Source: Raja brachyura
Taxonomy: Eukaryota
Direction of reading: 5' to 3'
NCBI GenBank assembly: GCA_963514005.1
Contig: OY740801.1
Coordinates: 13,640,001-13,704,000, forward strand
DNA: 64,000 bases
Shown: one piece after another, positions 23,401 to 36,893 of the stretch
How positions within the stretch are numbered: position 1 is the first letter of the stretch
How the letters are laid out: every line of letters begins with the position of its first letter
Program-made: the position numbers and the translations under genes
Notes under the pieces: model-generated
What the model was told of the DNA's origin: nothing
The model's input: only the letters and a program-made list of their open reading frames with translations
Database searches by the model: none

Positions 23401-26400
23401 AGAATGAGGCAAATTTTGAAAGTTAAGTAGGATAAGTGTAAATGGAATGTTGAGGGTCGGCATGCAGTCTGTGGACTGAATGGACCATTTCCTTGTTGCA
23501 TGTCTTTGATGCTGAGGCAAGTCGGTTGATTCTCTTGCCTTTTCCTCCAGCACACCGCATTACTTTAATTCATGCGCTTTCAACAGGCAAGTCTTTTGAC
23601 ATCATAATTTCCTTTCACCACAGTTGAAAAGATCTGATCCATTTCACACATCATTGCTCTTATCCCTGTCTCCAGCCCTACTTCTGCAAACCAAGAAAGA
23701 GCTCTCGTTATCCAGGTTTTCAGATTCAAAAGGAGCACTTAGATCAATTTAAAGATACAGTGTGGAAATAGGCTCCTCAGCACACCAAGCCCACACCAAC
23801 CAATGATCACCCATACACTAGCTCCATCCTACACACTAGGATCAATTTAAAGAAGCCAATTAACATACAAAGCTACACGTCTTTGGAATGTGGGAGCACC
23901 TGGAGGAAACCCACGTGGTCACAGGGAGAACGTACAAACTTCATACAGACGGCACCGTAGTCAGCATTGAACCTGGATGTCCGGCGCTCTACGGCAGCAA
24001 CTCCACCGTTGCGCAATTGTACGCAATTATCTTTTTATCCCCTGAAATTGCCAATACCTGTACCTCCAAAATAATGAAAATTTCCCTCTGTTTCCACTTG
24101 GGATTTAGAAAGAGACGGTTCTCTCTAACACATGTTGATTGCGGTCCCTATTGTCATAGTACATTTCCATTCCTAGTCGATAGAACTCCTGTCCTTTTAC
24201 CTCCATTCTCATCGTCATCCTCCTCCTCATTCTCAGTGAAGCACTGATTTACTTATGTTCAAGGTAATATGTTTATTGAGGACCCCACAAGCAGATTAGG
24301 TGACTGGTTTGTGAAACAGAGGGCTGACCTGTGCTTCCAGTTACTTGTTCTTTTAATTCTGTCTCATTCCAGCTGTCCTCAACTCTCCCATCCAAATCTT
24401 AATGCAAGTTCAAGCAAAAACGCATCTTCCAGCAACCATACTACAACCAGACATGTTAAATTTCAAATATAATTATATAATTTGCGATTTCCAGCATTCA
24501 ATCCATCAGCCTCTAGTAGTCACAATTGTTCTGAATATACAGTTCCTCCAGACTGACCCTCCAGATGTCTATTGCCATCTTTTCTTGCTTTGTATCAACA
24601 TTCCTTTTGTCATTGAATCTCTCCTGCTTCCCATTTTTCACAGAACTTTTGTAGTTGCATCTCTTGACCTGACTTGACTTGGTCTGAAGTAGGGCCCCCA
24701 TTCGAAACATCACCTGTCCATTTTATCCAGAGATGTTGCCTGACCTGCTGAGTTACTCTAGCATTTTGTGTTTATCTTTGGTATAAACCGGTATCTGCAG
24801 TTCCTTATTATTATATTATCTTTTGACCCCTTTCTCCGTATTTTAAAAACTGAACTTTCCCAGTGCTTATCAAACCTCCAACACGCAAAATAATTTAGAT
24901 TTTTGTTAGACTTTTAGATTTCAACGATTGCAGAATTTTGCGTTCTATTGGCATGATTAAATGTTGCATGAAGTCTGCTTGCACCTTCTGGTCCCATAAA
25001 CGTGATTTTAGTTTTCCAGCTTCCATGATACTGTTCTCTAGTAATACTGATAATTATTCTGTGTTTAACTCCTTCAGACAACTCCTTCATCCTCTTACCC
25101 CTAAACCAGATACCCTTTTAATTTCATTATTAGTTTGCATCCATTCGCACTGAGCCCCAGCTGAACACAACGTACTTGCTGAGTAATGAGGCCATCGTAC
25201 AGTGACTGTTCAGCCTGGTCCCATCTCTTCTGCAGCTCCTCCTTCAGATTAGGGTAAACTACAGAAATAAACAAATCTTAGCAGGTGTTGTGTGGCTGTC
25301 TTCCCCCATTCCAACACGCACCACACACAATTTCACTCACATTCCACCACTCCAGAGCACCCCATCAAAAACACCACGTCCTCATCACAACACAGTCCCT
25401 TAAACGCGTCACCCCATCTTCAATCCTTTTATGTTCCCCCAAATATGTCAGCCTCTCGTCCTCTCTGACAAAATACACCCATATCACATCCAGACCATGG
25501 CTGGATGGAAGCATGTTATAATTCTAATGTGGGAAGGCATCATTCAGTTGCACTGCAGACCCTATTCCAGGAGGGAGTGATAATGACACTTTACCTGAAG
25601 CCATCCTCTGCTCTCTCATGTTCTGAGGAATGACTTTCTTACTCACCCAGGAGTGATTGGGGGTGGCAGACTAATGGTGTTTCGAAGGTGAGCCAATAGA
25701 TGCAAGTGTTGGGCTCAGAAACATGAGCCAGTTTGTGGCTGGTTCCACATGTGAAAATGACCTGTAAATGAGAGAGAAGAGTTTAATTTGGTAGAGCAGA
25801 GGAGTGGCAGAGTTATTAACATCACATTGCCCGAGGAACCCAGTGTCTGACCGGAGCCCTGAGAGACTAACCACCTTGTGAGGCAAACCAACACCCCCTG
25901 CTAATGGCCGAGTGCATTGTCGCAGGGCCCATGTTGTTTTCTCGCTGTTAGCTTATCTGACACTAGGTAGCAGGAATGAGGGTTTTGGAAATATTGGTTT
26001 CCGGCTCCCTATTCCTTCAGCTTGCACATCAATGAGCCTTGAAGTAGTGTCAGTTCACATTCAGTACACTGAGCAAAGGAATAGGGGACACCTACCTTGG
26101 TCTGTCTGTTCTTGCTGGCACAAGAATCTCCCTCCTTCATCCACATTCCCACAAAGGTGTTGTTTACAATCTCCCATTCCTGCCATATTCTACAGAATAA
26201 AAGACAGTCAGATACCCATTTATTTTTCCTTAATCATGATTCACCCACGTTCATGCCCCGCTTTAAATGTAACTTCATGACGATTTACCCAATTTCTATC
26301 CACATCCCAACTACACTCACCACCTGCTCTAATGGGGATAAACTAAAGTAACAGGTAACATTCTGGCATCAGTTCAATCAGGGGACTCTACCGCTGCCTT

Positions 26401-32400: not shown

Positions 32401-34646
32401 GGGTAATTTCAGAGAAGGCCTCAATTCCAGATTGTACTCGATCCTGTCTTGAGGCGTGTGGGAAAGAACTGCAGATGCTGGTTTAAATCGAGGGTAGAGA
32501 TAAAATGCTGGAGTACTGCAACTCAGCGGGACAGGCAGCTTCTCTGGAGAGAAGGAATGGGTGACGTTTTGGGTCGAGTCCCTTCTTCAGAAGAAGTCCG
32601 AAGAAGGGTCTCAACCCGAAACGTCACCCATTCTTTCTCTCCAGAGATGCTGCCTGTCCCACTGAGTTACTCCAGCATTTTGTATCTACCTTCTGTCTTG
32701 AAGTACTTGCTCTGGGTGGAACCTGGTTCCCAAGGTTATATATGGTCTCATACACCTTATCATCTGACAAAGAGGTCTTTCTGGAACTTTACATCCTTTG
32801 GATGGTCTAGAAGTTGAGTACTAAACTATACTTTATTTTAAATCCCAGTACTGGACATTTTCCACCCTCATTCCATGGTATAAAACCTGTCACCATTTTA
32901 TGCAAAGTCTTATACACTGTTTTCTGAAAATCCCAAACTGCCTTACAGACCAAGAATAATAACTTTTAAAGTGTATTACCCTGTCGTTATGTCAGGCTCT
33001 GCAACTTGTATATATTGTATATCTACAAACAGCAATGTTTTCACAACTACATCATAATATTAAGTACTGTATTACATTTACAGGACACTGGGAAGAACGC
33101 TTTAAACAGTGTCATGGGACATTTACATCTGAGGTGCAAAACATGCTTTTGGCTTACAGTTCCCCAGTACAGATTCACATTGGAGTATCAGTCTGGATTT
33201 GGCCCAAGGTCTTTGGAGTTGGATTTGACTTGAGAAGCAACTAAACCAATAAAAATAGCGAAATTAAGTTATTCAACACTGCCTGATCTGGGAAGATTCC
33301 CACCACTCTGACCCTCCAAGGAGAACGATTTTTTGCATTTATTTACCCGTAGGTGTTGGGCTCTTCTACAATTTTCATTTTAGTAGCCGAGATGCCAAGA
33401 ACTGCAGAAGGGAAAGAAAATGAAATCTATTAATATCAGAGTTCAAGTCCAGAAGCACAGGAAGAAATTGAAGCGGCTTGTTGTCGGACTGTATTAAAAG
33501 CTGCAGACAAAAAAAAAGTGTGGGAAGGAACTATGGAGACAAAGAACACAGTATGTCGGAGTGACTGGGCTGGTCGGCGCTGGGATGCCGGTCGCTGCAT
33601 CCAACTGTGATGTCGGGTGCATTGAGTGGTCAGCAACCCGTTCCGGCCATTGACCAGAAACACACCTAACCTTGGACTGACCAAGACCTGGGCCAGGGCC
33701 GGACAACACAGCAATGATGTCCCTCGCCCCTTAGTCAAATATCCGCATCGAGGGATGTGTAGGTACAAACAGCCTGGGAGACGAGAACGGAGACTCACAG
33801 TGCAGCCAGAGGAGGGGGACACAGTGCAGCCAGAGTAGGGGGAGAGTGATTCACAGTGCAGCCAGAGGGGAGAGTTGGGGGACTCGGTGTAACCAGAGGA
33901 GGGGGATTGGGGGGGGACTCACGGTGCTGCCAGAGGAGGGGAGACTGTGCAGCTAGAGGAGTGGGGGAGAGTTGGGGGACTGGGTGCATCCAGAGGAGGG
34001 GGAAGGGGGAGTGGGGACACAATGCAGCCAGAGGGGGGAGGGGGGGACTAGTGGGGGTACTCACAGTGCAGCCAGAGGAGGGGGGGGGGGGGACTAGTGG
34101 GGGTACTCACAGTGCAGCCAGAGGAGGGGTGTACTCACAGTGCAGCCAGAGGAGGGGGGGGACTAGTGGGGGTACTCACAGTGCAGCCAGAGGAGGGGAG
34201 GGGGACTAGTGGGGGTACTCACAGTGCAGCCAGAGGAGGGGGGGGGGGGGGGCTAGTGGGGGTACTCACAGTGCAGTCAGAGGAGGAGTGGGGGGGGGGC
34301 TAGTGGGGGTACTCACAGTGCAGCCAGAGGAGGAGTGGGGGGGAGGGGCTAGTGGGGGTACTCACAGTGCAGCCAGAGGAGGGGGGAAGATGGACTCACA
34401 GTGCAGCCAGAGGAGGAGTGGGGGGGGGGGGGACTAGTGCGGGTACTCACAGTGCAGCCAGAGGGGGGGGAAGATGGACTCACAGTGCAGCCAGAGGAGG
34501 GGGGGGGGGGGCTAGTGGGGGTACTCACAGTGCAGCCAGAGGAGGGGGGAAGATGGACTCACAGTGCAGCCAGAGGAGGAGTGGGGGGGGGACTAGTGGG
34601 GGTACTCACAGTGCAGCCAGAGGAGACAGAGGCCGCCCATCGCCAT
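20357..34646 (-). CDS. GNPTG: N-acetylglucosamine-1-phosphotransferase subunit gamma, complete, 11 exons, 885 nt / 294 aa
   Basis: Exons 34646-34610, 33401-33347, 32306-32239, 31969-31915, 27035-26952, 26189-26096, 25761-25647, 25258-25176, 22845-22723, 21493-21415, 20448-20357 join in frame: signal peptide, [21 protein letters not shown] domain [40 protein letters not shown]...[25 protein letters not shown]-like segment, C-terminal RGDPG. Confidence 0.95.
21415..21493 (-). CDS. GNPTG: GNPTG exon 10 ([26 protein letters not shown])
   Basis: tag/gtcagt, 79 nt. Confidence 0.88.
21600..22250 (+). mobile_element. Old CR1 LINE fragment in GNPTG intron 9
   Basis: Degenerate CR1 RT/3' sequence (GGATCCAAAATTGGCTTGGTGATAGGAG, GCAAGGATTGGTGCTG). 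Confidence 0.55.
22723..22845 (-). CDS. GNPTG: GNPTG exon 9 ([22 protein letters not shown]...QCNE)
   Basis: cag/gtaggg, 123 nt. Confidence 0.93.
23195..23328 (-). mobile_element. Penelope pLTR-derived short insertion with intact minimal hammerhead core, inside an older V-SINE
   Basis: Minus strand CTGAAGAAGGGTCTCGACCCGAAACGTC; flanked by AAAAAGTGGCTT direct repeats. Confidence 0.7.
23748..24012 (-). mobile_element. tRNA-derived V-SINE (HE1-like)
   Basis: Reverse-complement copy of the same family. Confidence 0.75.
25176..25258 (-). CDS. GNPTG: GNPTG exon 8 ([27 protein letters not shown])
   Basis: tag/gtacgt, 83 nt. Confidence 0.94.
25647..25761 (-). CDS. GNPTG: GNPTG exon 7 ([38 protein letters not shown])
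   Basis: cag/gtgagt, 115 nt. Confidence 0.95.
26096..26189 (-). CDS. GNPTG: GNPTG exon 6 ([31 protein letters not shown])
   Basis: tag/gtaggt, 94 nt. Confidence 0.95.
26406..26698 (+). mobile_element. tRNA-derived V-SINE (HE1-like)
   Basis: Same head, core and tail as the other copies (GGTAGAGTTG..CCTTACAGCG...GGGCCTGTTTCCGTGCTGTATCTCT). Confidence 0.8.
26952..27035 (-). CDS. GNPTG: GNPTG exon 5 ([28 protein letters not shown])
   Basis: cag/gtatgt, 84 nt. Confidence 0.95.
27664..27760 (-). mobile_element. Penelope pLTR-derived short insertion, near-identical to 23224-23320
   Basis: Two differences over about 97 nt; ACATGAAGA on both flanks. Confidence 0.7.
29263..30888. mobile_element. 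Non-autonomous foldback-type DNA transposon (hAT-like), nested in an RTE-derived element
   Basis: Imperfect TIRs (TAGGCATGTGCCGTGAG / CTGACGGCATGTGCCTG), 8-bp TSD GCTACAAG/GCCACAAG (1 mismatch), GGTAGGCA subterminal repeats, long internal inverted repeats. Confidence 0.75.
29708..29943 (-). mobile_element. CR1-type LINE 3' fragment nested in the foldback element
   Basis: ATAGAAACATAGAAAATAGGTGCAGGAGTAGGCCATTCGGCCC is the reverse complement of the CR1 tail also seen near 53060 and 56200. Confidence 0.8.
31915..31969 (-). CDS. GNPTG: GNPTG exon 4 ([18 protein letters not shown])
   Basis: cag/gtgagt, 55 nt. Confidence 0.92.
32239..32306 (-). CDS. GNPTG: GNPTG exon 3 ([22 protein letters not shown])
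   Basis: cag/gtaatg, 68 nt. Confidence 0.92.
32455..32692. mobile_element. Palindromic Penelope pLTR pair
   Basis: Two inverted copies meeting at ~32590; CTGTCTTGA direct repeat at 32444 and 32693. Confidence 0.75.
33347..33401 (-). CDS. GNPTG: GNPTG exon 2 ([18 protein letters not shown])
   Basis: polypyrimidine + cag acceptor, gtaaat donor, 55 nt. Confidence 0.92.
33790..34625. repeat. G-rich minisatellite, ~22 units with core (T/G)ACTCACAGTGCAGCCAGAGGAG plus variable G runs
   Basis: Directly visible tandem units; the last unit overlaps the GNPTG exon-1 donor; units degenerate away from the exon. Confidence 0.95.
34610..34646 (-). CDS. GNPTG: GNPTG exon 1 coding part ([12 protein letters not shown], signal peptide start)
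   Basis: ATG at 34646, donor gtgagt, 37 nt phase 1, joins exon 2 in frame; second in-frame ATG at 34640. Confidence 0.8.
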
Positions 34647-34960
34647 AACGACGGCCAGGCCGCGGTTCCGGGCACCGCGCCGGAAGTGCCGCGATCCTGG
34701 GTAAAAGCGAACACTTCCACGGGCAAATTTCCACGAACCGCTGGTCGCCAGGTAAAAGTAGAAGATGCCAGGACGAGCATGTGAATCGGGGCGGCCCACG
34801 GCGAGGACTCGAGGTGTCAGTGGCGAAGGGAGGCGCCTGGTCGCGGATAATGTGTGGGGGGGGTGGGGGGGGGGTGGGTCGCCGGCTTCAGGCTGAGGGA
34901 GGCCGGTCCCCAGCGTCAGTCCAGGCTCAAGATCAAGCAGCCAGAGCACGGGGAGCTTTA
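34647..34960. promoter_or_regulatory. CpG-rich bidirectional promoter shared by GNPTG (-) and TSR3 (+)
   Basis: CpG-dense segment directly upstream of the GNPTG ATG; ETS/GABP motif CCGGAAGTG at 34680-34688; candidate TSR3 non-coding exon donor CAG|GTAAAA at 34751/34752. Confidence 0.7.
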
Positions 34961-35059
34961 GTGTGGCGTTGCTGTCGTCAAACTTTCCCCACGGCTGCAA
35001 ATCGGCCAAGTAAAGGTAGGTGGTCACGGAGTGAGGAGTGTGGTTGCTGCAGGGCCCTG

Positions 35060-36135
35060 AGACACCAACAATCCCTGTTGTTCCAGGCGTGCACTGCCCC
35101 TGCCCCTGCCACCGCCCTCACTATCCCCCAACTCTATCTCCTTGACATTGACGACTGCATCAGTGCTACCTCCTCCTCCCATGCTAAACTCGCGGACTTC
35201 ATCACCTTCACCACCAATTTCCTTCCTGCACTAAAAATTCACTTGAACCATCTCCGACATCTCCCTTGTGTTTCGTGATCTCACCGTCTCCATCACAGGA
35301 GATAGATTATTGCCGGACGTCTGTTATAAATCTACTGACTCCCACAGTTATCTAGACAACAATTATTCCCACCCTGCCTCCTGCAAAGATTCTATTCCTT
35401 ACTCCCAGTTCCTCTGTCTATGCCACATCTGCACCCAAGATGAGGTGTTCCAAAGGAGGACATCCTCGTTCTTTAGGGAATGAGGGTTCCCCTCCCCCAC
35501 AGAGATGAATCCCTCAGACGGATCTCCTCGGTGTCCCGCAGCTCTGCTCTTGCTCCCCCTCCCTCCCATCACAACAGGGACACAGAGTCCCCCATTTCCT
35601 CACCTTTCACCCCATCAGCCGCCGCATACAGCACATATTCCTCTGAAATTTTTGCCACCTAGCAAGATCCCACCAGTAGCCACATCTTCCCATCTCCACC
35701 CCTTTCCACAGAGAACATTCCCCCATTCCCCACGCAACTCCCTGGTTAACTCATCCCTTCCCACCCAACACAAATTGGAGGAACAGCATCTCAAATTTAG
35801 CATGGGCAGCTTACAATCCAGCGGAATGAATTTTAATTTCTTTAACTTCGTATCCCTTGCACCCCGTCTCTCTCTCTCCTTCCCTCCCCCCACCCTAGTT
35901 CTCCGACTAGTTTCATTGTCCTCTGGATTAATTTTACTGATTGTATGCCTCGTAGACCCCTCCCCCTCAGCCAACAATGAACCATGCTATACCAATGTCT
36001 GCTTTGATCTAATTTTCACATCTTTCCCTTCCATATCTCTAGAATCCCTCTTCCCTGACTCTCAATCTGAAGAAGGGTTTCATCCCGAAACATCACCCTT
36101 TCCTTCTCTCCAGAAATGCTACCTGACTCGCTGTG
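35060..36135 (+). mobile_element. Penelope-like element remnant (RT C-terminus, GIY-YIG end, pLTR) in the TSR3 5'UTR intron
   Basis: Frameshifted pieces LDIDDCISATSSSHAKLADFITFTTNF, YKSTDSHSYLD...HPASCKDSIPYSQF, HKLEEQHLKFSMGSLQSSGMN are typical PLE ORF motifs; ends in CTGAAGAAGGG...CCCGAAACATC. Confidence 0.8.
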
Positions 36136-36769: not shown

Positions 36770-36893
36770 ATGGGGCGGAAGAAACAGTTTCAGAAGAAGG
36801 AGCGTGCTGGTCCAAAATGGAAAGATGGCCATCATAGAGAGAAGCACCAATCGTTTGAGACATTTGGAGAGGATCTTCATGATGCTCTGCAAG
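36770..36893 (+). CDS. TSR3: TSR3 first coding exon ([11 protein letters not shown]...DLHDALQ)
   Basis: ATG right after a ttgttcag acceptor; donor gtgcgt at 36894; 124 nt. Confidence 0.85.

Follow-up and report, generated by a model that had tools for sequence, protein, structure and literature searches.

The first intron of GNPTG begins with a minisatellite in which the junction between exon 1 and intron 1 is repeated into the intron. In the window, by which we mean the whole stretch of 64,000 nucleotides analysed, the array occupies positions 33793-34625 of the minus strand and was resolved by a fuzzy decomposition into 22 units, an exact count that depends on one assembly of an error-prone type of sequence. 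In each unit, 16 exon-derived bases are followed by the donor GTGAGT and by a C-rich spacer whose length varies. The array is a junction-spanning minisatellite whose first donor is the one used in the assembled spliced sequences, and in our judgement it is quite probably tolerated rather than functional. A sequence-only reading of this DNA, made before the present analysis, had kept a neutral slippage product as its fallback; the data support that fallback, which agrees with the tolerated reading favoured here.

Nine minus-strand exons, starting from the ATG at 34646, form a single open frame and are bordered by AG and GT. One of them matches the structure of the N-acetylglucosamine-1-phosphotransferase gamma subunit (7s69_A) at 24 of 27 residues (E 6e-14), two match PRKCSH-type families in Pfam, one of these below the curated cut-off, and exon 26096-26188, one of five scanned, has no Pfam family match. 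The coding part of exon 1 (34610-34646, minus, 37 bases) encodes the first residues of a predicted hydrophobic signal peptide; the hydrophobic N-terminus encoded by exons 1 and 2 together fits such a peptide. Exon 2 (33347-33401, minus, 55 bases) contains an in-frame ATG at 33378. An AATAAA that starts at 33343 on the minus strand overlaps the exon-2 donor (33338-33346), and two further ones lie in intron 2. On the plus strand, two exons match Fer4_RLI and Ribo_biogen_C in Pfam, the domain pair of TSR3. The family and structure matches are thus in accord with the two gene names proposed earlier. A stretch of 142 bases (34610-34751) separates the GNPTG donor (minus, 34610) from the TSR3 donor (plus, 34751). 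GNPTG exon 2, this stretch and TSR3 exon 2 (from 36714) occur in one spliced contig of run X12. The contig is unstranded and, as it covers two genes, does not represent a single transcript; GNPTG and TSR3 probably have first exons that overlap head-to-head in 34610-34751. TSR3 exon 1 contains no ATG here, and the start codon appears to lie at 36770. Within the shared first-exon stretch, position 34715 is A in X12 and T in the window, probably an allele. A separate X12 contig with a depth of 4.97 covers 34935-35100 in TSR3 intron 1, for which unspliced RNA, DNA carry-over and an alternative first exon are candidates. In the open-access literature searched, the papers on GNPTG together with TSR3 are association studies.

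Unit 1 (34604-34625, minus) combines the 16 bases at the end of GNPTG exon 1 with the real donor at 34610/34609. It lies across the real exon-intron boundary, as revealed by spliced contigs that break at 34610 and at the acceptor 33401; the exons join in frame. The proposal that unit 1 is the real donor and that the repeat derives from the exon-1/intron-1 junction is borne out. The copies follow head to tail with units of minisatellite size. Units 2-14 (34059-34578, minus) form a homogenised block in which 2 of 286 core letters differ. Units 15-21 (33819-34036, minus) are worn and have lost GTGAGT in six of seven cases, the exception being unit 18, and the final unit 22 (33793-33814, minus) is a perfect copy at 22 of 22 positions. 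The window has 16 occurrences of ACTGTGAGT, of which 15 are within the array (units 1-14 and 22); shuffled windows contained it 0.65 times on average and 0 of 100 shuffles reached 16. The downstream units thus reproduce the splice site, with 14 more copies of ACT/GTGAGT and one ACC/GTGAGT in unit 18, the sixteenth GTGAGT. An earlier count of about 22 units, about 15 of them with an intact ACT/GTGAGT including the real donor, is matched by the decomposition (22 and 15), and the coordinates given with it are also right. Of the 15 downstream GTGAGT copies, 12 have the full 16 exon-derived bases, and the remaining three have 14, 7 and 0. Wherever a donor could be placed, donors are spaced 23-51 bases apart. 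The spacers behind donors 1-6 alternate between two types (ABABAB) and later are mostly of type A, which contains a TAG; the C-runs range in length from 5 to 15, values that, like the unit count, are taken from one assembly; poly-C arrays are error-prone.

In units 15-22 the donor differs at 16 of 48 letters versus 13 of 128 in the exon part, counts made on related copies in which a 2-base deletion scores as two to three letters and which do not amount to a significance test. GTGAGT was lost in six of these eight distal units, yet 13-16 of the 16 exon-derived bases were retained. The donor is therefore not preferentially preserved in the old distal units. The copies had been described as decaying with distance from the exon: those near the exon are indeed near-perfect, but the decay is stepwise rather than gradual and the most distant unit is perfect.

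A dispersed repeat family was considered as the source of the unit and rejected, since all 14 exact matches to the 19-base core in the 2.7-Gb genome are inside the array (reversed control, 0). Elsewhere in the window, no match to the unit with up to three errors was found. Donor-like arrays as such are common. Triple repeats of a better donor motif yielded 867 matches genome-wide versus 787 in the reversed control, and so are not above control; a second array search yielded 19 matches versus 234, from which no depletion is concluded since a few long arrays dominate the counts. Among 17 arrays read by eye (10 from the first 100 of the 867 matches and 7 of the 8 arrays of the second search), none had an obvious coding exon ending at the first unit, a reading that detects coding exons and that non-coding exons would escape. 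At G000:C4:119322061-119325206 and 119351905-119352417 (L044, L045), two occurrences separated by about 30 kb and nearly identical in their upstream flanks, a G-rich array consists of dozens of copies of units of about 36 bases, each with AG/GTGAGT and a TGACGT motif and with no obvious exon at the start. In the window itself, an intron of another gene contains about 550 bases of degenerate, low-complexity C/T-rich sequence (990-1540); donor motifs were looked for in this tract and none were found.

DNA contigs of all three related organisms examined, designated B, D and F, have array units at the corresponding position; the flanks in these organisms diverge from the window by about 3% (13/504), 5% (24/447 plus gaps) and 8% (35/449), respectively. 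The presence of units there indicates that the array predates the split of these species and is not an artefact. The idea that the array arose in assembly, which the sequence-only reading had named as a possible refutation, draws on the error-proneness of poly-C arrays and on the derivation of the unit count and C-run lengths from one assembly. Arguing against it are the unit contigs of organism B, with depths of 31.4 and 41.9 compared with 7.75 for a single-copy contig and with a contig joint that returns 41 bases; the attachment of at least three units in organism D to the same distal flank as in the window; and a contig of organism F (DNA run X14) that extends from exon 1 into the second unit and is accompanied by four more unit-like contigs. 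An artefact accordingly has next to no probability. The unit types and spacers differ among the three species, such that units turn over between species: organism B has the TAG-type spacer, whereas in organism F a C replaces the A directly after the GTGAGT of donor 1. In a contig of organism D (run X11, compared with window 34604-35100), 28 AT-rich letters after donor 1 replace the C-rich spacer, either an insertion between donor and array or a contig artefact; a second contig of similar depth has array units at the distal flank. The persistence of units across flank divergences of about 3%, 5% and 8%, together with the intact distal unit, is compatible with turnover and also with selection.

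Spliced contigs reveal which donor is used. They were obtained in four runs from four organisms and four studies: X12 (organism A, the same species as the window), X13 (E), X17 (F) and X18 (G). The records label none of the runs as RNA and give no tissues, but these four were judged to be RNA because they are spliced; all run evidence in this study comes from 7 of 21 listed runs. In each spliced run, exon 2 is covered by one contig, which continues past 33401 with a loose end of the same 30 bases; these match 34610-34639. Since 30 matched bases exceed the 16 shared with the copies, donor 1 is identified as the donor in 4/4 runs, with exon 2 joined to the real exon 1. No other donor is seen joined to the acceptor at 33401 in these contigs. 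In X12, one unbroken contig of 2,586 bases with a depth of 64.8 covers 34610-34751 and continues through the exon-1/exon-2 junction; the X12 contigs give no depth over units 2-3 (34515-34609), although a gap in depth over intron 1 in spliced runs was not treated as proof of absence. X12 shares its sample code with the best DNA run and may be from the source sample of the window assembly. Organism F provided both kinds of data: its DNA (X14) has array units, and its spliced contigs (X17) use donor 1. The authentic upstream donor therefore predominates at contig resolution, at which rare variants are dropped and donor use is not quantified; units 1-3 were compared directly with the contigs and donors 4-22 only through their likeness to units 2-3. 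RNA structure was considered as a cause of the silence of the copies and rejected: the predicted accessibility of donor 1 (0.003) is within the range of units 2-14 (0.001-0.021), and folding does not single out donor 1.

An in-frame TAG, codon 18, is located 15-17 bases into intron 1 (34593-34595, minus), upstream of donor 2 at 34563. Reading from the ATG at 34646 yields 17 residues before this stop, which precedes all donors other than donor 1. The earlier statement that any downstream copy leads to a premature stop is therefore correct; the assumption that such transcripts undergo NMD is not assured, since the stop is close to the AUG. AUG-proximal stops can substantially evade NMD (PMC3273812), although escape may be incomplete (PMC10187673), and reinitiation is reported to be most efficient near 78 bases (PMC6614817). 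The ATG in exon 2 lies 53 bases past the TAG with donor 2 and 87 bases past it with donor 3, which together with the AUG-proximal stop suggests that leaked transcripts would not simply be degraded. The main rival of the tolerated reading builds on this arrangement. According to this rival, donors 2-3 would leak in a minority of transcripts and the unit number or the A/B spacer order would tune GNPTG, which we consider unlikely; with a similarly small chance, NMD would spare some of the transcripts with the AUG-proximal stop, and translation could resume at the exon-2 ATG; and it is no less doubtful that the restart product would be a gamma subunit without a signal peptide. Its basis is the use of two downstream sites in IFI6 and CBS (PMC1557585), and it gains from the TAG contained in the transcript from every downstream donor, from the spacing of 53 and 87 bases, on either side of the reported optimum, and from the ease with which minor isoforms escape contig assembly. 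No stop-bearing isoform was seen in the spliced contigs of the four runs, which as contigs drop rare forms. Against it stand the use of donor 1 in 4/4 runs and, in X12, the unbroken donor-1 contig and the missing contig over units 2-3. Moreover, the TAG-type unit is found in organisms A and B, whereas other letters follow donor 1 in D and F, so that the stop may not be conserved. In human F7, donor choice was unchanged with 1 to 12 units (PMC1557585), which argues against an unproductive-splicing dial set by copy number, as the sequence-only reading had imagined it.

U1 protects transcripts from premature polyadenylation. The unused donors might accordingly bring U1 close to the promoter, prevent early polyadenylation within the first 2 kb of GNPTG and, at the promoter shared with TSR3, bias elongation towards GNPTG, a proposal that appears very unlikely. 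It is kept alive by the three AATAAA in the 1,040-base GNPTG intron 2, by the 142 bases that the GNPTG and TSR3 first exons have in common, and by the 16 GT[AG]AGT in the 1,208 bases of intron 1, the richest of those examined (0-7 in seven other introns). However, intron 1 contains neither AATAAA nor ATTAAA, only two weak variants, and the donors are gone from six of the eight distal units. Nor is the earlier description of GTGAGT as a strong U1 site supported. By a crude duplex estimate, donor 1 forms six Watson-Crick pairs and one G-U pair with U1 (-6.9 kcal/mol), is unpaired in the exon half (-3 to -1) and ranks sixth among nine GNPTG donors scored, while copies with a C after the donor reach -5.5 kcal/mol; the pairing is moderate and confined to the intron half. 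Alternatively, the splice-site content could be incidental and the G-rich plus strand could act through G-quadruplexes or sites for G-rich factors just upstream of the TSR3 first exon. The plus strand of the array has 40 runs of at least three G and five non-overlapping canonical quadruplex motifs, and the array begins at the edge of the shared first-exon stretch. But C-run lengths vary from 5 to 15, spacers differ among species and the array, with three CpG, is CpG-poor, unlike the adjoining promoter, and we give such a DNA-level element a very slim chance. A combined version, in which the array is kept across species for work at the shared GNPTG/TSR3 promoter, seems very unlikely as well. 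U1 loading would then tip elongation towards GNPTG, or leakage at donors 2-3 would create an upstream ORF of 17 codons that escapes NMD and permits restart at the exon-2 ATG, with a signal-less cytosolic gamma subunit that varies with unit number, or both would occur.

The more plausible model remains that of a tolerated array. In its favour are the joining of donor 1 to exon 2 in 4/4 runs, the upstream-first choice in F7, the undisturbed splicing around amphioxus mirages, the lack of preferential retention of donors in the old units, the differences in unit type between species and the abundance of donor-like triple repeats in the genome. Slippage or unequal exchange at the C-rich intron start may have created the array before these species diverged, and turnover would be ongoing, with the exon-adjacent block being homogenised and the distal block decaying. 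The spliceosome would commit to the most upstream, cap-proximal donor, as in the F7 experiments, and leave the copies competent but unused. Any leak would end at the TAG just inside the intron; the product would be a peptide of 17 residues and not a longer aberrant protein, which would reduce the burden imposed by the array.

As it stands, the GNPTG array adds a further natural case to a repeat type that is already documented, and it changes little. Its modest value lies in experiments: 15 identical donors follow a first exon, an in-frame stop precedes the second donor and relatives differ right after donor 1, a combination that could help to distinguish, outside mammals, between upstream-first selection, cap proximity and suppression by stop codons. 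If the U1 or the signal-less-isoform proposal were true, a repeat would be setting the balance between a gene for lysosomal targeting and one for ribosome biogenesis at the promoter they share, and such promoter tuning would be a new use for a junction-spanning repeat.

The arrangement as such, which the sequence-only reading did not recognise as known, has already been published for human F7 intron 7, IFI6, CBS, LMNB2 and PDGF and for the "mirages" of amphioxus, and by four defining features the GNPTG array is a junction-spanning minisatellite of the F7 IVS7 or mirage type. No paper on the GNPTG array was found in the open-access literature searched, and the passages of PMC10078293 examined contain nothing on donor-spanning units. 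The closest relative is the 37-bp VNTR in intron 7 of human F7 (Borensztajn et al. 2006; PMC1557585), where unit 1 likewise lies across the real border, identical donors are repeated into the intron and the most upstream donor alone was seen in use. In F7 this was observed in three cell types, and minigenes revealed that the copies are competent and that the most upstream intact one is used; this upstream-first rule derives from mammalian cells and an internal exon (PMC1557585). The F7 repeat comprises 5-9 units behind an internal exon with four exon bases copied, compared with 22 units, a first exon and 16 bases in GNPTG. It lacks the variable poly-C spacers, the stop ahead of donor 2 and the promoter shared with TSR3, and it is polymorphic in unit number, whereas the unit number in the GNPTG array is known here from one assembly.

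Comparable to GNPTG in copy number are the minisatellites in IFI6 (6-16) intron 2, CBS intron 13, LMNB2 and PDGF intron 4, with 10-25 repeated donors (PMC1557585); CBS, whose repeat is denoted c.1444_1467+7(16_21) (PMC2630376), is also comparable in its exon share. IFI6 and CBS use two downstream copies besides the real donor (PMC1557585), unlike GNPTG, where none was seen at contig resolution; LMNB2 and PDGF resemble GNPTG in using the real donor alone. With the latent 5' splice sites subject to "suppression of splicing" (PMC1524910), GNPTG shares an in-frame stop before an intronic donor downstream of the first AUG, the TAG at 34595-34593 preceding all donors but the first. This likeness is one of layout; in F7, stop codons did not, according to the authors, explain the silence of the copies (PMC1557585). 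The mirages of amphioxus, found in Adh3, BflGb6 and BflGb9, leave regular splicing undisturbed (PMC3087553). They occur in cephalochordates, at acceptors or donors, with units of 10-160 bp, and their border unit is excluded from homogenisation, whereas in GNPTG the last unit is a perfect copy of the core. Like the GNPTG array, mirages repeat an exon-intron boundary in tandem, evolve in concert within a cluster and go along with regular splicing.
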